A stretch of DNA of 58,566 bases. Source: a virus. Its lineage: Duplodnaviria; Caudoviricetes. A program made the translations under genes and the position numbers. Below, piece by piece: positions 17,282 to 52,579 of this stretch. How positions within the stretch are numbered: position 1 is the stretch's first letter; the number at the start of each line of letters is the position of its first letter. The notes beneath the pieces were generated by a model that was given only the letters and a program-made list of their open reading frames with translations, searched no databases and was not told where the DNA came from. The stretch spans positions 1 to 58,566 of IMG/VR virus record IMGVR_UViG_3300034106_000909; one strand, given 5' to 3'.

Positions 17282-20200
17282 TTAGTTGGCTGTTACATCT
17301 TCGGCCAGTTTACGCTGACCTTCACGGTACTGTACACCACCAACCGTACGCTTCTCGCGCTGCGCTTGTTCCTGCGGAGCCTTGAGCAGGTTGGACATTG
17401 GTTGAGGCTTGAGGCCGTTACGCTGACGCGCTTGCTGGAGTTTAGTCCATGCCTCACGAGCCTCCTGCATGGCAGCAGTATCCTTCTGGCGAGACGCTTG
17501 GGCGTAGTCGTTCTTGATACGCGTGGTGCGGTCTTGAAAGTTCTGCGTGATATCACGCATGCGGTTCTGGCGCTCGTAGGTCACTGACTGCTGGACCGAT
17601 GGTATACCAAGGCCTGTCAGCACAGTTTCTATTGCTCCAATTTCGCTTTCTGGCAGGACTACGTCACCGTTGCGGCGGGTCATACCCTCAGTTGCCTGAC
17701 GGCCAGACTTAAGCGCATCGGACACACCCTTGGGCATTACACGCTCGAGACCCTTGTAGTAGTCACCCTTGGACATGAGGATGAGACCGTCAGCAACTCG
17801 GGTAGCCATACCCAAAGATGCCCCGCCAAGAGCTGCACCAAAAGCTTCAACTTGACCTGAAGTGGTGCTCAAGTCAGCGTTACTAAATGGCAGAATGGAC
17901 AACATATTGCCCGCACCGATCTTGCCGGACAAGTCCATACCAACAATCGTCGGAGCGCCGCGCATAATCATGTCAGCCCACTCAGGGCCAAGCGCCTTGC
18001 GCATATCAGCAGTCAAGTCGTATGGCTCGTCTTCGTCACCGAACAACCCCAACACAAACGAAATAGCCGCGTAGCCCGGCATGCCCATCAAGCCAGCAAA
18101 CACTCCAGTGTGGCCAAGCGAGTAGGCCAGTGTCTTCATGGCAGCAGCACGCTCATCAGGCTTGGTAAACGCATCACGAATCAGCTTGGCATAGAACGCG
18201 ATCTGGATCAATTGGAACTTGCGGAACTGCAGCGCCACCTTACCCCACTGGGTGTTGAACGCACGAGGAGCGTTAAAGGCTGTGTAGTCACCATGGGTGT
18301 CAGTCAAGATGTCAGCAGCGTACTGCGTGGCTGCAGCTTTAGGGTCTGCAATTTTTGGGTCTTTTTTAGCCCGCTCAAACTCCAAACGGTACGCAGCAAT
18401 GGCGGTAGACAAACGGTTGGTAGCTTCAACTTTCTGCACGGCCATGCGCATACCTTTGTTCAGGCGCTGCGCAAACTTGCTGAGGTTGCCGTCGGCTTCT
18501 ACCTTGTACTCGTTGATCTCAGTGGCCAGACCAATGTCGATCTTGCCTTGGTTGACCAAGTCGTTAATAGCTGCACGCACATCAGCAGGCACCTTGGAGA
18601 AATCAAACTGCTGGTCAAACAGTTTCACGTCCTTGAACAGTGGGCCCAACTCACCATACGCCTTAGCCAGTTCCGCAGCAGCTTTGGTGTAGTCATGACG
18701 ACCCGCCATGGCAGGCAGAGACATCATGAATGGCTGTGTCAAGTTCTGTAAATAGTACGCAGGGCTGGAGGCCAAGAAGAACTTGGACGCCATGTTGGTC
18801 AAGCCGTTGAGGAACGGACTTGGTTTAGGGTCAAGCGAGTCAGCGTAGCGCTGCGTCAACTCATCAAAGATTTCAGACTTGCGTTCGCGTTCGCCAGTGC
18901 GTGACTGGTTGCGCATCTGCTGCAGGGCATCCTGAATCTTAGGCTCAAACTCTACGCTGGCCAAGAAGTTAGCATCGGCACGGCCTTGCTGCGTGAACGA
19001 CTGAAGCATGTCCACTTCACCGGCTACACCACGGCGACGCATCTCAGACTTGCGGGCACTACCCTCAGCCAACGCTTCCAAGTACAACTGGTTAATGATG
19101 TTGAGCAGCTTGCCAGCAGATGGGTCAATCTTGCCATCTTCTCTGGTGTTTTGTGAGGTCACAGCCGAGCGCATCTTTGTCAGCGCGGGCATCAAAGCGT
19201 TTTTGCTAAAGTCATCCATGGCTTCAGCACGTTTAACGATGTTGATGTCCAAGTTCGGATAGGCTTCGGCCAGTGAATCTTTTAAATTTCTACCAGTCCA
19301 CTTGGTGTCAACAAACGACACGCTGTAGTGGTTTGGGTCAGACTCCATCTTTTTGATGGCCTCCGCGTCTTTATTTTCTTTGGCAGCCCTAAAAGCGGCA
19401 GATTCAGCAACCACAGCATAAGTACCAGTGCGCTTAATAGGCGCGTAGGGCACGCCCTCACGGATGCGGAACAGCGTCTGGAAGCGCTTGAGCGTATCGG
19501 CTTTTTCTGCTTTGAGCTCAGCCAAGTTTTCTTTGGCTTTTTTCAAATCTTTTTTGTCGGTGGTGTTGTTGACTAAGTCCTGCGCAGCCTTAATCATGGC
19601 GTCGTACTCAGAGTTGGCTGCGTTCAGCACAATCGTCTTCTTGCTTGACAGCATAGCGTCGCCATGGGCAAACACGTCTTTGGCAAACTGCTGAGCCTTG
19701 GGGCCCAGCTTGTTGAACATGGCCTTCATCGCTGGGTCAGCTTTGAACTTCGCAGTGTCGTAGCCCCACTTCCCCGTGCGGGTGGACTCAAACAAGAACT
19801 CGTTGACTGAGCCGGGGCCGTCCCCTTTGTTGGCATCTTCAATCAAGGCATAGCGGTCGGCAATCTTTTCAATCTTGCGCTCTTCCTCACTGACCTTGGC
19901 GTTGCGGGCAGCAAGGCGGTCGGAGAAAGTCTTGGCAGCGCCCAGACCCAAAGCTTGAGCACGCTTGACCAGATCGTTTGTAAACAGCGCGTAGTCGACA
20001 TACTTGCCGCCCAAGTCACCAATGGCCTCAGTTATACGCTTCACAGGCTGCTGAGACATCTTCGGCAGCTTGGCAATGTTGCGGTCGATCAGGCCTTGAG
20101 AGCGGTTTGCCCTGAAACGAACGGCAGTTTGCCGGAGGGGAACTTGTCTCGGCTGACCATTCCCTTGCGTGGTTTGGCCCCCAGCTTGCGTTGAGCGTTG

Positions 20201-23200
20201 AGCTTCATTTGCCTTTGCAGCGGCGTAGTCGGTTTGCTTGACTTGTTCATATACTTGCTCCATGAAATCTGCCACTTCTGGCAGGTTGTCTTCCAAAAAT
20301 TCACGACCGTCGCGTGTAGTGTATGTGGCCCACAACTGAGCAAACAATTCCTCGCGGATGCCATTGCCGTCCAAGTCACCGTGCTGCGTACGATCAAATG
20401 GATACGACAAGTGCTTTGACAAGTCGGATGTGGGGTTGCTATTGTAGTGATCGAACGCAGCTTTCATAACCGCGCCCATGGGTTTGATCTCGCCGTTTTG
20501 CAACCGCACGTTAAATTCAGGCAAGCTAGAAAATACACCACCGCCTTCAAGATGTGTCTGATCTGCAGCATGACCGACTTCATGGTACACAGTCCACTCG
20601 ACACGCTGAGAGTCTGTTAAAGCACCACGGCGTAACAGCACAGCTGCTTGACCGTCAATGGCAGTAAAGCCGCCATCCCAGTTCACCTTGGAGTCGGTGA
20701 CATACCACCCACCGACGTAATCAACCAAGTCGCCAAGACCTTCTTTGCGCAAGCGGTCAGTAGCAGCGCCAACACCGGGAACAGCTTCAAGACGTGACAG
20801 CTCTTGCTCCTGCAGTTCAACAGTCGCATTGTCTTCGTCCACCGTGGTTACAGTGCGCAGTGCGTTGAACTTTGCGCCACCTCTAGCCAACTTAGTCAGC
20901 TCATTTTCAACGTCATCCTTGGTCCAGTTGTCTGGGCCGAACTCAATGAAGTTCTCCTGCTGGGCCTTGGTCAAGTCAGCGAACTTGGGAGCCTGCGGGA
21001 AGTCAGCAGCGACTACATCCCACGCTTGAGCGGCTTGTTCTGCTTCGGTGAGGATGACGGCTGGGACTTGGGCTTTACCTTCTGCGGCAGGCTTTTTGGC
21101 ACGCCGTACTTTTGTGCCCACTCCTTGGCCAGTTTCGGCTTTTGGCTGAACAGATACCCCTGCTGGGCTTTCGACTTGAACGGCATCTGGCTCTCCTAGT
21201 TCTTTGGGTTGTTCGGCTTTAGCGGCGGTTTCCTCCGCAGCGTCTTTTTCAGACTTGCGGCCAGCAAGGGCTCGAACTTCTGCTTGAGCTTGCTTTTCAA
21301 CTGCCTTGACCTTTTCAATCTGCGCGGCCAGAGTGGCATTCAGTTGCGCCAATACTGCTTCGTCGGTCTCTACGGCCAGCGCCTCAAGCGTGGCGTCAAT
21401 TTCTTTTTGGAGATCGGTAAAGCCTTCAACAGCAGATGTACTAGCGCCTGCAGTCTTGACGATGTTACCCAGACCGGCTTCAATGGCTTGGTCCTCGTCC
21501 ATGCGATCTTGGCTGTCAGTAAATACCTCTTTGGCAATTTGACCTTCTGTGCTTTCTGGCGAAACCGTGTTGAACGCATCTGCAATCTGCGCATCAGTCA
21601 AGTTAAATTTAGTCTTGGCGCTGGCAATCAGCGCTGGCCATTCTTTTTGGCCAGTAGCCCCAGCAATTGCTTGGATAGAAGACCGGCTAAGTCCATACTT
21701 GGTAGCCGCTTCTGGCTCAGGCATGCCCATGCCAACCACGTCAAAAATGATGCCGCCGTTACGTTCACCAAAGATTTGCTGCAGTATTGCTTGGCGTTCG
21801 TCTACGACTGGTCCTGCGGCGGCAGGTGTCGCTTGTCCTTGCGTTTCTGCTTGCTGGGCTTGAGCGGCTTTAGCGGCATTTGCGGCTTCCAATACTGTCA
21901 TGGGTCGCGGAGCGCGACGGAAACGGGTTTGTGGTGCTGTGTCTGTAGCAGGTGCAGTCTGAGTTAAACCGGTAGATGGTTGCCCGGGGGTACTTGGAAG
22001 AACGCTAGTTTGTTGAAGTGCTCCTCCAGCGACTGGGGCACCTCCGACCATTGTTCCTGCGACAGGAGCAGCTGGTCCTGCATTTCCCACGCCTCCTTGA
22101 ACGACAGGGCTCCCGACTCCCAAGCCTCCTGCAGGCTGCTGTACAGTAGAAACTGGTGCGCCACTTGGTGCCTCCTGACGAGCTTTAATAATTGCCGAGT
22201 CCAACAACTCTCGTGCTTTTTCCAAGCGCTTGGGAGTCATCGGCTTATCGCTAGCAAACTTCCAAACGTCTATGAACAAGTCGGAGTCCAGCGGCACTCC
22301 AGTTGCTTGAGCGTCAGCCGTAATTTCTGAGTAAAACTGCAACGACGACGGAGTCGGTGTCACATTAAACGTGTCACGCAGTTCGTACGAACGTGGGTCG
22401 CGTACGGTACTTGCTACTACTTGAGCAGTTGCCGCTGCCTCTGCTGGCTTTTCTTGGGTCAAGTCAAGCGCTGCTTGCGAACGCTGCAGGGCTTCGCCCA
22501 CTGTCAAGGGGCGTTCAATGCCGGTCTCTGGGTCGCTGACAAACTGGCCAGTGGGTTCATCGTACGCCGCTTTGAACTGCGCTACATAGTCTTTACGCTT
22601 GGGGCGTGTGATACCTACGTTCTGGTTAATAAACGACTGTAAGCCAACAGTTTGGTCTTGAGTAACAAACTGGCTTTCAAGTGGGCGTTGCACCAAAGGT
22701 GTTTGATCTTGTTCAGTAGATGTCAGATCGCGCTCACGAGCAGCGTCACGGAAACCTTGGCTACGACGCCAACCGCCAGCAGCACCGCCAAGCAAGCCAC
22801 CAAGCAGACCGCCACCTACAAAGGACTCTGCGTAGTCGTCCATGGCCTCCGGGCTAAACAGTTCAACACGCGGGTCAACGGCTAACCGGCCCACGTTGGA
22901 GATGTATTCTTGGCCGACTTCACCAATAGCTTCGGATAAGCCCGTACGACCAAATGCCGCGCCAGTGCGTGCAGCACCGCCCGTAAACCCGCTAAGGTTG
23001 TCAAGATATCGGTTAGCCACAGATGCAGCGCGTTCAGCCCGAACACCAGTACCGGCCAACTTGCCAACAATACCAGTAGCAGCTTCAACACCGCCATAAG
23101 CCAGACCAAGAGGAACAGCCGTCAAATCGGTGCGGCCAGTCTGCTCACGTTGAGCTTGCGCCACAGCACCTATACCGGTAAGACCGGCGACACCGTACGC

Positions 23201-23557
23201 GGCAGCTGGACCCCCGATAAGCCCAGCTCCAATAATAGGCAGCATACTCGGCAAAGACTGAGCACCCAACTCTAGGGCGTACCGCCCCACATCTCCAACA
23301 CCTGAAATGTTTCTAAATGAACCAACCGCGTCCTGATTAGTATCGTAGTAGCGCTGGGAAGTACGCCGGGCTTCAGCTTCTTGAGCTAAACGATAGTCCC
23401 TTGAAAGACCAAAAGCTTCAGGCAATTCGAGCGCAGCAGCCGCCGCAGTAGAAGCACCCGAACTAAATAGCGCACCAACACCAGCTTCAGGAGTCGCTAC
23501 TCGGTACTGCTGGCTGTAGCGTTCTGCAATTTCTTCGTCTGTCAGGCGGCGGGACAT
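17282..23557 (-). CDS. Large internal virion/ejection protein with a zincin-like metallopeptidase motif
   Basis: 2091 aa; last large gene of the virion module; YHEVGH...EELFAQ. Confidence 0.8.
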   Translation of the reverse strand: MSRRLTDEEIAERYSQQYRVATPEAGVGALFSSGASTAAAAALELPEAFGLSRDYRLAQEAEARRTSQRYYDTNQDAVGSFRNISGVGDVGRYALELGAQSLPSMLPIIGAGLIGGPAAAYGVAGLTGIGAVAQAQREQTGRTDLTAVPLGLAYGGVEAATGIVGKLAGTGVRAERAASVANRYLDNLSGFTGGAARTGAAFGRTGLSEAIGEVGQEYISNVGRLAVDPRVELFSPEAMDDYAESFVGGGLLGGLLGGAAGGWRRSQGFRDAARERDLTSTEQDQTPLVQRPLESQFVTQDQTVGLQSFINQNVGITRPKRKDYVAQFKAAYDEPTGQFVSDPETGIERPLTVGEALQRSQAALDLTQEKPAEAAATAQVVASTVRDPRSYELRDTFNVTPTPSSLQFYSEITADAQATGVPLDSDLFIDVWKFASDKPMTPKRLEKARELLDSAIIKARQEAPSGAPVSTVQQPAGGLGVGSPVVQGGVGNAGPAAPVAGTMVGGAPVAGGALQQTSVLPSTPGQPSTGLTQTAPATDTAPQTRFRRAPRPMTVLEAANAAKAAQAQQAETQGQATPAAAGPVVDERQAILQQIFGERNGGIIFDVVGMGMPEPEAATKYGLSRSSIQAIAGATGQKEWPALIASAKTKFNLTDAQIADAFNTVSPESTEGQIAKEVFTDSQDRMDEDQAIEAGLGNIVKTAGASTSAVEGFTDLQKEIDATLEALAVETDEAVLAQLNATLAAQIEKVKAVEKQAQAEVRALAGRKSEKDAAEETAAKAEQPKELGEPDAVQVESPAGVSVQPKAETGQGVGTKVRRAKKPAAEGKAQVPAVILTEAEQAAQAWDVVAADFPQAPKFADLTKAQQENFIEFGPDNWTKDDVENELTKLARGGAKFNALRTVTTVDEDNATVELQEQELSRLEAVPGVGAATDRLRKEGLGDLVDYVGGWYVTDSKVNWDGGFTAIDGQAAVLLRRGALTDSQRVEWTVYHEVGHAADQTHLEGGGVFSSLPEFNVRLQNGEIKPMGAVMKAAFDHYNSNPTSDLSKHLSYPFDRTQHGDLDGNGIREELFAQLWATYTTRDGREFLEDNLPEVADFMEQVYEQVKQTDYAAAKANEAQRSTQAGGQTTQGNGQPRQVPLRQTAVRFRANRSQGLIDRNIAKLPKMSQQPVKRITEAIGDLGGKYVDYALFTNDLVKRAQALGLGAAKTFSDRLAARNAKVSEEERKIEKIADRYALIEDANKGDGPGSVNEFLFESTRTGKWGYDTAKFKADPAMKAMFNKLGPKAQQFAKDVFAHGDAMLSSKKTIVLNAANSEYDAMIKAAQDLVNNTTDKKDLKKAKENLAELKAEKADTLKRFQTLFRIREGVPYAPIKRTGTYAVVAESAAFRAAKENKDAEAIKKMESDPNHYSVSFVDTKWTGRNLKDSLAEAYPNLDINIVKRAEAMDDFSKNALMPALTKMRSAVTSQNTREDGKIDPSAGKLLNIINQLYLEALAEGSARKSEMRRRGVAGEVDMLQSFTQQGRADANFLASVEFEPKIQDALQQMRNQSRTGERERKSEIFDELTQRYADSLDPKPSPFLNGLTNMASKFFLASSPAYYLQNLTQPFMMSLPAMAGRHDYTKAAAELAKAYGELGPLFKDVKLFDQQFDFSKVPADVRAAINDLVNQGKIDIGLATEINEYKVEADGNLSKFAQRLNKGMRMAVQKVEATNRLSTAIAAYRLEFERAKKDPKIADPKAAATQYAADILTDTHGDYTAFNAPRAFNTQWGKVALQFRKFQLIQIAFYAKLIRDAFTKPDERAAAMKTLAYSLGHTGVFAGLMGMPGYAAISFVLGLFGDEDEPYDLTADMRKALGPEWADMIMRGAPTIVGMDLSGKIGAGNMLSILPFSNADLSTTSGQVEAFGAALGGASLGMATRVADGLILMSKGDYYKGLERVMPKGVSDALKSGRQATEGMTRRNGDVVLPESEIGAIETVLTGLGIPSVQQSVTYERQNRMRDITQNFQDRTTRIKNDYAQASRQKDTAAMQEAREAWTKLQQARQRNGLKPQPMSNLLKAPQEQAQREKRTVGGVQYREGQRKLAEDVTAN

Positions 23558-49658: not shown

Positions 49659-50167
49659 TTGATCTCCTTGACCTCAGCGTCCAGTGTAACCGGCGTGATG
49701 GTCTGCTGGTTGCTCAAGTTTATGCTCTGGCCACCACCCAAGTCGATAGAAATGCTGAACCCCGGGCCAACATCTTTGATTTTCTCCTCTTTGGGCTCCA
49801 ACCCTGCGGCCTTGATGAGCGTCTTGAGGACTTCGTGCTTCTGACTGAGGCTGGCATCGACCGAAGCTGCACTGAGGTACACCTGATCGAGCAAGTCCCC
49901 GGCCATCCATGCTGCCTTGGCTTTGAACGTGACGCCGTTTTTCTCGTACTCGGACCGTTTCATCTGAACTTGCAGTTGAAACCACGGCTGCACGGCCAAT
50001 TCGTTGTAATCCTCGACGGACATCCCGTGGCGAGCGGCCACGATTAGCTCATCTTCTAGCCCAAGGGCCACCGAAGCCACCATTTCCTCGCTGATTTGCG
50101 GAAACGACACCGTTTTTGGCTTGTATTCCAGCGGCAGATCGTCCATTGGTACGTCTTCAGGCTGCAT
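49655..50167 (-). CDS. terS: Terminase small subunit (putative)
   Basis: Directly upstream of and coupled to terL; helical with a C-terminal beta strand. Confidence 0.7.
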   Translation of the reverse strand: MQPEDVPMDDLPLEYKPKTVSFPQISEEMVASVALGLEDELIVAARHGMSVEDYNELAVQPWFQLQVQMKRSEYEKNGVTFKAKAAWMAGDLLDQVYLSAASVDASLSQKHEVLKTLIKAAGLEPKEEKIKDVGPGFSISIDLGGGQSINLSNQQTITPVTLDAEVKEIK

Positions 50168-50327
50168 TTGCGGTCTCCGAAGCCTGTTTTTGGGCTTTTT
50201 CGAGGGCTAAATAGTATTTTTCCATGGCAATTCTGGCCATTTCAGCCGAGGAAACCCCCTTTTGGGAGGCCAAAACACGGTATTTTTCGATCAATTCTTC
50301 AGGCAAATACAGGTTCCACCGCTTCAT
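50157..50327 (-). CDS. Ribbon-helix-helix (CopG/Arc-like) DNA-binding protein
   Basis: MKRWNLYLPEELIEKYRVLASQKGVSSAEMARIAMEKY; GGAG RBS. Confidence 0.8.
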   Translation of the reverse strand: MKRWNLYLPEELIEKYRVLASQKGVSSAEMARIAMEKYYLALEKAQKQASETANAA

Positions 50328-50420
50328 TTTGTGCTCCAAATGTATGTATACACACGTATTGTACATACGTTTTTTAATTTTTTGGGGCTTTTTTACAAGG
50401 GGGCGGGGTGTTTTTAGGGG

Positions 50421-50436
50421 TGTATGTATACATACA
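50421..50436. promoter_or_regulatory. Perfect 16-bp palindrome TGTATGTATACATACA, operator candidate
   Basis: The 12-bp core recurs at 50341, 51866 and 52292. Confidence 0.6.
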
Positions 50437-50520
50437 TGTCGTAAGTTGGGTGTGCTACGTGACTGCGTCGTAAGCAGAGGGCGGGGCGGGTGCCGCCTTG
50501 GGGGGCCTGTGGGGGGTCGG

Positions 50521-50580
50521 GTAGCGGCCTGACCAGTAGTGGAAGGGTTGCATCATGCAGTAGCGGCCTGACCAGTAGTG
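50521..50580. repeat. 21-bp direct repeat GTAGCGGCCTGACCAGTAGTG x2
   Basis: Copies at 50521-50541 and 50560-50580. Confidence 0.9.
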
Positions 50581-50582
50581 AA

Positions 50583-50970
50583 GCGCAGTGTTCAACAGCG
50601 CAGTGGTGAGAATTGGCGACCAGCGGAAATCGCGAATAGCCCTTGTGTCGAGTAGGGTAACTCCCCGAAGCCCAGTGCGGGTAGAGGTGCGAAGCCAGAG
50701 GACACGTGGAGAGTCACACGCCAACGGGTTATGCCGGGCCGGGTGTCAAGCCACAACCTGCCTAGCAGGAATGGACTCATCGCGTCGCCGGAAGTGGACG
50801 TGTCCTGAGATTGCCATGTGACTGCCGATCACAGCGAGTATGCAAGATGACTCAATGTGCGTAGGGGTCATGAATCGTATATCGCAGGCTTTTTGAGGTT
50901 GCCTGACCAACAAACTAACCGAGCGCCAACAACCGAGGGCGCTAATACTCGGAAGCCCTCTCAAGGGGCT
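50583..50970 (+). ncRNA. Candidate structured non-coding RNA/leader
   Basis: Many nested complementary segments; no credible ORF. Confidence 0.4.
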
Positions 50971-51028
50971 TGAGTGTGTATCCGCTTTGGGTACACATCA
51001 AAGCTCAATCAACCACTAAGGAAAAATC

Positions 51029-51553
51029 ATGGAAAAAGCTCAAATCCTCAAGAATATCGGTTCAATCGGTCGTGCATCCAAAAAGCTGACCGCCGACATT
51101 CAAGCGACTGCTGTCGGTTGCGCTCTCCACGCTGTCAAGCATGGGGACGTGACTCTTGCAGACCAACTCGTGGACGCCTTGGGTAAGGGTATGCGTAAAG
51201 CATCCTTGCGTGCATGGTTCGAGACCAACACGCCAATGTTCATTGCCAAGGGCAAGGACAAGTTCAGCTTCGATACTGAGCGTGCTAAGACTATGCGTGG
51301 CATGGATGCCAAGGTCTTGGAAGAAGGGCTCATGGCGCTTGCATGGGAAGAAGCCAAGCCAGAAGAAAAGGTCGTGTCAGTATTTGACGTGTCCGAAGCG
51401 TTCGACAAGTTTATCAAGCGTGTCGAGTCTATGACCAAGGATGCCGAGGTCACAACCCGCAACCGTGAAATGCTGGATTACTTGCAGTCCGCCAGTGCTC
51501 AGTACCACGAAGCCAAGGCCATGAACAGCCGAGTGTCTCTGTCCGCCGAGTAA
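51029..51553 (+). CDS. First early protein, hypothetical
   Basis: AAGGA RBS; strong codon bias; HAVKHGDVT motif. Confidence 0.8.
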   Translation: MEKAQILKNIGSIGRASKKLTADIQATAVGCALHAVKHGDVTLADQLVDALGKGMRKASLRAWFETNTPMFIAKGKDKFSFDTERAKTMRGMDAKVLEEGLMALAWEEAKPEEKVVSVFDVSEAFDKFIKRVESMTKDAEVTTRNREMLDYLQSASAQYHEAKAMNSRVSLSAE

Positions 51554-51616
51554 TCACAGGTCTCAGCCTGAAGCCCACCATGTGGGCTTTGGAGTGTCAC
51601 TTGTAAAGGAGTAATC

Positions 51617-51865: not shown

Positions 51866-51880
51866 TGTATGTATACACAA

Positions 51881-52205
51881 CTATCCAATTATCCAAGGGG
51901 CTTTTTACCTTGGATAATTAGGTTTCTCTTTAAAATCAATGGGTTAGACGTGCAATTAGACAATTAGACAATTATCCAAGATATTAGGTACACACAGACG
52001 ATGCGTGTGTGTTCTTGTGTGAAGGTGCGCTGAGCGCACACAATCCATACAACCCTAAAATCCTCGCGCACACTCCAGCTTTTCTGGATAATTGGATAAT
52101 TAGCCTAGGGTATACCCTCATACCCTTTCACAGCCTAGTATCCATGCGGGTTCCAGCATCAGTACCCGCTAACATCGACTATCCAAGCCCATCAAACCTT
52201 GGATA
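51881..52205. repeat. Iteron-like TATCCAA(G) repeats with an IHF site; origin candidate
   Basis: AATTATCCAAGG/CCTTGGATAATT inverted pair plus further copies; AATCAATGGGTTA at 51934-51946. Confidence 0.6.
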
Positions 52206-52269
52206 CCACCTTGCCTAATTACCCCATCAACGTACGTATACATAACGTGTGTATACATCAGGAGTCATC

Positions 52270-52428
52270 ATGTCCCAACGTCAACAGCTAATGTATGTAT
52301 ACATCAAAGATGACATGGAAGAGGACGAACCGTTCATCTTCGAGGCCGACACCAACGTCAACCCCTTGGACATGGATGACCCCGAGACCGCATATCGGGA
52401 ATACTTGGCTGATCGATTCAGCAGGTAA
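52270..52428 (+). CDS. Small highly acidic protein (52 aa)
   Basis: AGGAG RBS; MSQRQQLMYVYIKDDMEEDEPFIFEAD... Confidence 0.65.
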   Translation: MSQRQQLMYVYIKDDMEEDEPFIFEADTNVNPLDMDDPETAYREYLADRFSR

Positions 52429-52434
52429 CGTACA

Positions 52435-52458
52435 CATACATACATACATACATACATA
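52435..52458. repeat. (CATA)6 microsatellite
   Basis: Read directly from the sequence. Confidence 0.9.
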
Positions 52459-52579
52459 CCTAACATCGGGGCTACGCATACACACAGAGTGTGTGCATCA
52501 GCTTGGGGGTGGCATCCCCTTAACCCATCAATTCGCCTAAGCACCACCTCTCCCCCTCCCTCAACACATGGAGAACCCC

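Follow-up and report, generated by a model that had tools for sequence, protein, structure and literature searches.

As judged from covariation among relatives, the ca. 450 untranslated bases that precede the first early gene of this phage fold into a conserved multi-domain RNA. The studied stretch, positions 50583-50970 of the window (the complete virus record, 58,566 bp, analysed at its full length), is on balance probably the core of a + strand untranslated leader of ca. 550 nt (ca. 50480-51028), which belongs to the first early unit and would act in cis. Comparison of related loci showed two conserved folded domains in this leader, a 5' domain and a tandem pseudoknot. A preliminary description of the stretch, made from the letters alone, had proposed a multi-domain phage ncRNA or structured leader, and this proposal agrees with the finding of two separately conserved + strand domains directly upstream of the first rightward gene. 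From 5' to 3', the leader would consist of the 5' domain, a lineage-specific connector, the tandem pseudoknot, two hairpins and the ribosome-binding site, followed by the gene, here called gpA.

The window is divided into two arms separated by a spacer of 662 non-coding bases (50367-51028), within which the studied stretch lies. The minus arm begins at 50366 with a divergent ribbon-helix-helix gene (CopG-like; 50157-50366, - strand; Pfam RHH_5, E = 9.5e-7), which is followed by terS, TerL and the structural genes. The rightward arm begins with gpA (51029-51553, + strand), an open reading frame encoding 174 aa and assigned to phrog_1448 of 'unknown function'. The largest proteins are a protein with a DarB-like C-terminal part, a tail fibre, the family A DNA polymerase PolA, a DUF927 primase-helicase and an SNF2 helicase, and no RNA polymerase gene was found in the phage by Pfam and PHROGs annotation. 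The match to the DarB-like antirestriction family (E = 2.9e-56) concerns the C-terminal part of a 2091-aa structural-arm protein (17282-23557, - strand). The stretch had been described as non-coding, and among 19 relatives there is no ORF of constant length, strand or position.

Relatives were collected from viral contigs by TerL similarity (297, the best 80 of which were analysed), and a search with gpA added 25 viral loci and 38 metagenome loci. Among the best 80 TerL loci, gpA adjoins the ribbon-helix-helix gene in 13, with a gap of 552-793 nt between the two genes as calculated by subtraction.

The 5' domain (M5; 50612-50769, + strand, 158 nt) comprises eight helices with 29 pairs arranged in two arms. 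The helices are P1 (50615-50617/50639-50641), P2 (50623-50625/50631-50633), P3 (GTGTC 50645-50649/GACAC 50701-50705), P6 (GTGG 50706-50709/CCAC 50751-50754), P6b (50715-50717/50743-50745), P6c (50720-50722/50737-50739), P7 (50725-50727/50734-50736) and P8 (CCTGC 50757-50761/GCAGG 50765-50769), the last being a 5-bp stem with a 3-nt loop. RNAalifold, when run unaided on plain MAFFT alignments, returned P1, P2, P3, P6 and P8 from 19 sequences, with compensatory changes in 18 of 19 pairs, and 26 pairs (25 compensatory) from 37 distinct sequences; the eight-helix model combines the RNAalifold helices with three inner helices read off the alignment. When this model was evaluated on the 19 sequences, 90.2% of the paired cells could pair as compared with 69.4% in shuffled alignments, two-sided changes were seen in 25 of 29 pairs (14.9 in shuffles), and the covariation score was 0.542 (0.186 in shuffles). 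None of 500 shuffles reached the observed pairing, two-sided-change or covariation values, and the covariation score fell to 0.03-0.12 when the partners were slid by 1-3 columns. A covariance model of the domain (R2) gave 149.5 bits at 50609-50776. The leader also holds the near-invariant single-stranded motifs GAGTAGG and ATAGTCAC. P8 forms part of a larger covarying fold, which speaks against a hairpin promoter of the N4 type, a reading that is further disfavoured because the giant virion-arm protein matches a DarB-like family and not a polymerase. In the cells of M5, G.U combinations far outnumbered A.C combinations (76 vs 8), indicating that the folded strand is the + strand and that an RNA in the sense of gpA is the natural reading.

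The 3' domain (M3; 50875-50958, + strand, ca. 80 nt) contains two consecutive H-type pseudoknots preceded by the invariant-like motif YATAWCG (50878-50884). In the first, the loop of H1 (50885-50889/50901-50905) pairs with a downstream segment to form PK-A (GGTT 50897-50900/AACC 50917-50920), and the linker ACCAACAAAC joins the two. In the second, S1 (50922-50927/50938-50943) and S2 (50933-50937/50948-50952) are interleaved as in a classical H-type pseudoknot. Since the H1 loop pairs with bases that lie just before S1, the module amounts to two pseudoknots in a row. In the MAFFT alignment A1 (20 sequences), 89.4% of the paired cells could pair (69.1% in shuffles) and the covariation score was 0.496 against 0.149, the former being reached by none of 500 shuffles, although such shuffle controls overstate significance because the sequences are related to one another. 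The corresponding values for 42 distinct sequences were 96.1% against 77.3% and 0.443 against 0.121, with 0.015-0.058 for slid partners, in an alignment (A4) that was fitted to a covariance model of H1 and S2 and so favours those helices. In these 42 sequences, S2 covaries in all five pairs and H1 in three of four. PK-A reaches a length of 4 bp or more in 37 of 39 sequences, with 14 different complementary versions, and it is found in 20 of 21 sequence classes as compared with 167 of 392 mixed combinations. Covarying stems thus surround the GCGCC/GGCGC helix, which is invariant in 42/42 sequences, together with the conserved segments ATA, CG and ACCAA, an organisation like that of a riboswitch core; as a conserved pseudoknot in the gpA leader, the module equally has the structure expected of a pseudoknot operator. 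A covariance model of the domain (R1) gave 84.5 bits at 50875-50958.

Some further readings of the 3' domain were rejected. The pseudoknot module is single in the window, and the 21-nt repeats that lie upstream of it are not a pseudoknot, which does not fit a type III toxin-antitoxin system of the ToxI kind. A sigma-70 promoter inside the H1 loop (TTGACG/TTGAGG) was discarded, as those bases covary with their PK-A partner. The H1 loop TTTTTGAGG (50890-50898) is complementary to gpA codons 6-9, CCTCAAGAA (51046-51054), in the window and in many relatives with a long loop. A switch between these two segments, which was derived from the minimum free energy (MFE) structure, was also dropped; 21 of 40 sequences allow pairing of at least 7 bp, yet so do 466 of 1268 mixed combinations, and most members with a short loop lack it.

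All of the base-paired strings named in the preliminary description are present where it placed them, and about half of the helices drawn from them are conserved. CCTGC/GCAGG, CAGGC/GCCTG and CCGAG/CTCGG, which correspond to P8, H1 and S2, covary. AGCGCC/GGCGCT, which is S1, combines the five invariant pairs with a sixth that switches from A-U to U-A. AAGCCCT/AGGGGCTT recurs in relatives but hardly varies. The remaining helices, including the long-range 9-bp helix and the proposed pseudoknot, are not conserved ones. The 9-bp helix AGGACACGT (50699-50707)/ACGTGTCCT (50798-50806) showed one-sided changes only in the five sequences available for it, ATGACTC/GGGTCAT is weakened in four of these five, and GCGAGTATG/CGTATATCGC gained no compensation among the five and overlaps H1. 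GAGTC/GACTC, which is broken in one close relative (L177), shares bases with P6b. The pairing of GGCGAC with GTCGCC, which had been suggested as a pseudoknot, is present in the window only, and the conserved pseudoknots lie at 50885-50952 instead. The 9-bp helix and these four others are confined to the window or its four closest relatives and clash with the supported helices; the 5' strand of the 9-bp helix is used family-wide by the covarying P3 and P6. The 9-bp helix could represent a lineage-specific alternative pairing, for which the five sequences provided no support.

The segment between the two domains (50770-50874, + strand) is a lineage-specific connector, which holds ACGTGTCCT, GCGAGTATG and ATGACTC/GGGTCAT. 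Its homologs are found only in the four closest relatives (L176-L179), and no compensatory changes back its helices in these five sequences. In the other relatives, two shorter hairpins occupy its position. The insertion at the 5' edge of the studied stretch (50583-50611, + strand) is peculiar to the window; none of the 15 rows of the main group in alignment A2 has it, and the sequence found there in L177, L194, L195 and L191 is different and unalignable.

Two checks proposed in the preliminary description gave opposite answers. The comparison of homologs yielded many compensatory changes in both domains, whereas the folding energy of the whole stretch was not better than that of dinucleotide shuffles. 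The MFE of the studied stretch was -131.6 kcal/mol, and 69 of 100 dinucleotide shuffles folded as well or better (z +0.52). The z values were +1.54 for the minus strand, +1.06 for the 5' domain alone and -2.57 for 50875-51000. Since the 5' domain, which is supported by covariation, itself gives z +1.06, the energy criterion is weak, and this case shows that a shuffle-based energy test can overlook a real structured RNA. The energy value is what speaks for chance helices in a functionless spacer; this reading is contradicted by covariation and conservation in dozens of distinct sequences from three collections and is hardly credible.

Upstream of the studied stretch, the spacer holds three features common to all leader types. 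The first is a promoter-like block (50446-50477, + strand; TTGGGT, 17 nt, CGTAAG(C)), whose counterpart in relatives consists of a T-run, TTGgtC, 17 nt and CGTAAGC. The consensus of 32 distinct relatives is TTTTTT.G.C.TGCT.T..GA..G.GTCGTAAGC, with CGTAAGC almost invariant. This block is presumed from its conservation to be the start region of the rightward transcript; it has no sigma-70 -10 element, and no sigma-70 consensus match was found there or elsewhere on the + strand of the spacer. The second is a G-rich tract including GGGGGGCCTGTGGGGGGT (50478-50520, + strand), which is kept in relatives of every leader type, except that a C-rich tract on the same strand replaces it in six of them (L187, L188, L190, L191, L194 and L195). 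The tract is prone to G-quadruplex formation. The third is a pair of perfect 21-nt direct repeats GTAGCGGCCTGACCAGTAGTG (family D7; 50521-50541 and 50560-50580, + strand; 39 nt apart). The relatives carry other words at this position, yet always in two copies, and the word type is independent of the leader type and of which terS or ribbon-helix-helix gene is present. These repeats may be protein binding sites.

Several palindromes and repeats lie around the leader-gpA unit. The palindrome TGTATGTATACA (also as CGTGTGTATACA) occurs 21 times in the window as compared with 2.46 expected, and its copies, which are probably operators of the ribbon-helix-helix protein or of another repressor, form one cluster on each side of the unit, at 50341-50436 and at 51866-52456. 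The gene-poor segment 51866-52270 contains repeats of (A)ATTATCCAAG/TTGGATAATT in both orientations, which we take to resemble DnaA boxes, and it may serve as a replication origin or as a further control region. A short tandem run of ACATACAT at 52434-52461 adjoins more operator-like words.

This environment bears on the possibility that the stretch works at the DNA level as a replication origin, a packaging site or an operator array, with the repeats serving as protein sites or single-stranded DNA hairpins. The stretch adjoins the terS side of the genome, the G-rich tract and 21-nt repeats close by have the appearance of DNA sites, and the outer bases of a hairpin just downstream (T2, below) resemble the operator palindrome. 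The stems, however, stay paired while their sequence changes freely, unlike protein sites; the excess of G.U over A.C points to one strand; pseudoknots and long-range helices are atypical of duplex DNA sites; and, as an origin, the TTATCCA-type repeats grouped at 51866-52270 are the better candidate. A DNA-level role is accordingly regarded as very improbable.

Downstream of the tandem pseudoknot, which ends 76 nt before the gpA AUG, two hairpins precede the gene. T1 (AAGCCCT/AGGGGCTT; 50953-50971, + strand) keeps its sequence in the main group, is replaced by other hairpins in L192, L075 and L141, and is absent from L187, L188 and L190; it is not terminator-like, as no U-run follows it. T2 (TGTGTATCC/GGGTACACA; 50975-50997, + strand) lies just beyond the studied stretch, and its inner stem covaries. 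Of the 18 rows listed, 14 have T2 and then TC(A/C)AAGC ahead of the first gene, among them relatives with other leader types. The tail ATCAAAGCTCAATCAACCAC with the ribosome-binding site AAGGA (51018-51022) occupies 50998-51028 (+ strand) and is unpaired in the MFE structure except for two pairs that close a small loop over AAGGA. No conserved helix covers AAGGA, so that an expression platform of the riboswitch kind was not seen, and the + strand of the spacer holds no terminator-like site and hence none between the two domains and gpA. With neither a helix that hides the ribosome-binding site nor an attenuator, the read-out through which riboswitches and operators usually work is not apparent here.

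The absence of such a site also bears on the idea that the whole leader or the 5' domain alone is freed from the early transcript and acts in trans as a free-standing large ncRNA, for example as an RNP scaffold with the cognate first-gene product, as a decoy directed at a host factor or at a defence protein, or as a ribozyme. The size and complexity of the RNA (eight helices and two pseudoknots, with near-invariant single-stranded motifs) fit this idea, as do the tie of each leader type to its own first gene and the heavy structure of another leader type (type B, below). Between the RNA and gpA, though, there is neither a terminator nor a recognisable processing site, and no Rfam family of self-cleaving ribozymes or large RNAs was matched; we therefore consider a trans-acting RNA unlikely, while granting it an appreciable chance.

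Processive antitermination of the put type, in which the folded leader would bind the host RNA polymerase and make it resistant to downstream terminators, was considered in the same context. The leader lies directly downstream of the presumed early promoter, the rightward arm is long, and the phage, in which no polymerase gene was found, would depend on that of its host. A weak hairpin GCCCAC-CAT-GTGGGC followed by TTTGG (51573-51592) stands directly 3' of the gpA stop codon. On the other side, the leader is several times larger than a put element, its 3' domain is linked to gpA and not to the whole arm, and a second regulatory region with the same operator-like palindromes is present at 51866-52456, which suggests that the downstream genes have their own promoter. 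Antitermination is thus a rather doubtful explanation. The hairpin after gpA may be a weak terminator that closes the leader-gpA unit; it received no flag in a terminator consensus scan.

The linkage of the 3' domain to gpA was strict. The M3 model matched 54 of 58 gpA-encoding sources, always on the gpA strand and upstream of gpA, and of the four misses, two lack upstream DNA and two are the most divergent gpA loci. When the model was run over 71 sources (633 kb), among them the terminase relatives that have a different first gene, the window was the only match. Two sequences in which the pseudoknot appeared without the 5' domain, L196 (about 2100-2346) and L223 (1-600), were set aside as likely assembly chimeras, as they join unrelated DNA at the common word CCAAGGTG; by our own reading of its sequence, L223 runs into a bacterial ispH-like gene. 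The M5 model, run across 83 sources, found the window and two weak matches in variant members, and the other leader types were not detected by it.

Relatives without gpA carry different non-coding stretches of ca. 400-650 nt at the same genomic place. The type B leader (ca. 580 nt; L009 4235-4815, - strand; also in L006, L010, L020, L026, L043, L047 and L053) gave 117 predicted pairs, 48 of them compensatory, when eight sequences were folded with RNAalifold, and it has no Rfam match. The first gene differs with the leader type: gpA in type A, a protein of 164-171 aa in type B and one of 145-149 aa in types C/D, the latter two being unrelated to gpA. Two more leader versions, at ca. 8400-9040 of L024 and ca. 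7870-8245 of L046 (reverse-complement coordinates), have the 145-149-aa first gene in common.

The AlphaFold2 model of gpA is mostly helical with two short strands (pLDDT 79.9). No PDB fold match (Foldseek), Pfam family, protein-atlas lead or recognisable RNA-binding fold was found for it. Homologs of gpA sit early in Autographiviridae genomes. Those of Pectobacterium phage Arno160 (L202, 646-1149) and Acinetobacter phage MD-2021b (L204, 1-1173) are among the first genes and again lie behind long stretches without annotated genes. The M3 model gave nothing above 9 bits at four cultured Autographiviridae loci with gpA homologs.

The leader RNA matches no described RNA family in Rfam. At the gathering threshold, Rfam 15 gave no match in the whole window or in 10 related loci, and at E up to 10 on 50200-51200 it gave three chance matches only, all outside the studied stretch. 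ARAGORN found no tRNA or tmRNA gene in the window. A full-text literature search returned no description of the leader RNA. A blastn search with the 662-nt spacer found no match in cultured phages. A gapped pattern returned 16 stretches from bacterial and archaeal genomes, which scored only 14-28 bits as compared with 55-90 for true members, and no prophage copy or host was found there. The pattern AGTCACACGCCAAC returned 96 stretches from viral contigs, mostly by chance, with L117 and L141 as the only new true members. Related sequence was found as contigs in four public runs (shares 0.04-0.13); these are pieces of relatives and include three short contigs of one metatranscriptome.

Taking these observations together, we infer that the leader of a promoter-leader-gpA unit would act in cis on the gpA transcript. 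The tandem pseudoknot would most likely be a platform to which either a protein, possibly gpA itself, or a small ligand binds, and as such would set gpA translation or mRNA stability; its strict linkage to gpA, the invariant G-C helix and the A-rich crossing loops are what point to a gpA-linked platform. The 5' domain would most likely be a compact fold that spares the long leader from termination or degradation, and leader protection, an action on the polymerase and a function in trans are all possible roles for it.

Pseudoknots that act as translational operators in 5' leaders are known from T4 gene 32 mRNA, the E. coli alpha-operon leader bound by S4 and the rpsO leader bound by S15. The present module resembles them in having an H-type or double pseudoknot in an untranslated leader, tens of nt before the start of one gene, with which it travels. 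It differs in that the pseudoknot is clear of the ribosome-binding site, an extra folded domain of 158 nt precedes it, and there is no sequence or Rfam similarity. As far as such an analogy goes, T4 gene 32 and the S4-bound alpha-operon leader would be the closest counterparts of the tandem pseudoknot. The put element of HK022 is a two-hairpin antitermination RNA that heads the early transcript of a phage dependent on the host polymerase; the leader is likewise a phage-encoded folded RNA at the head of the early transcript in a phage that appears to rely on the host polymerase, but it is much larger and has pseudoknots, and its 3' half goes with a single gene instead of an operon.

Pseudoknot riboswitch aptamers such as preQ1, SAM-II and guanidine-III share with M3 the covarying stems around invariant joining nucleotides and an A-rich loop that crosses a G-C helix. 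Unlike them, M3 has no visible expression platform, a non-metabolic gene lies downstream, and no Rfam match was obtained at E up to 10. In the Pistol ribozyme, the loop of a hairpin pairs with bases that lie 3' of an A-rich linker, and H1 and PK-A share this loop-to-downstream pairing past an A-rich linker; the other helices form a second H-type pseudoknot rather than P2/P3, and Rfam gave no match. GOLLD, ROOL and OLE are large ornate bacterial or phage-associated RNAs (PMC12286853). The leader is similar to them in its several hundred nt, its several domains, its richness in covariation and its occurrence in uncultured phage DNA. It is unlike these RNAs and HEARO in that their Rfam models do not match, the leader is contiguous with the gpA message rather than stand-alone, and no tRNA genes are nearby.

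The leader offers a well-supported example of a large structured RNA at a defined and experimentally convenient site, the first transcript of a phage. RNAs of several hundred nt with such covariation are rare and have usually proved to be ribozymes, RNP scaffolds or sophisticated regulators. It contains a compact tandem pseudoknot strictly tied to one gene, and many cultured T7-like phages have a gpA relative among their first genes. The heads of the early arms might even be exchangeable cassettes, each made up of an ornate RNA of 400-600 nt and its own small early protein and acting as an RNP, or through the RNA as a ribozyme or decoy, in host takeover or counter-defence. We regard this as a speculative and rather improbable extension, which, if true, would amount to a new class of phage RNA machine beyond a regulatory leader. 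In sister phages, other first genes are preceded by leaders that are unrelated to this one and just as structured, which suggests that a general, unrecognised layer of RNA control or RNA-protein action may operate at the start of infection.
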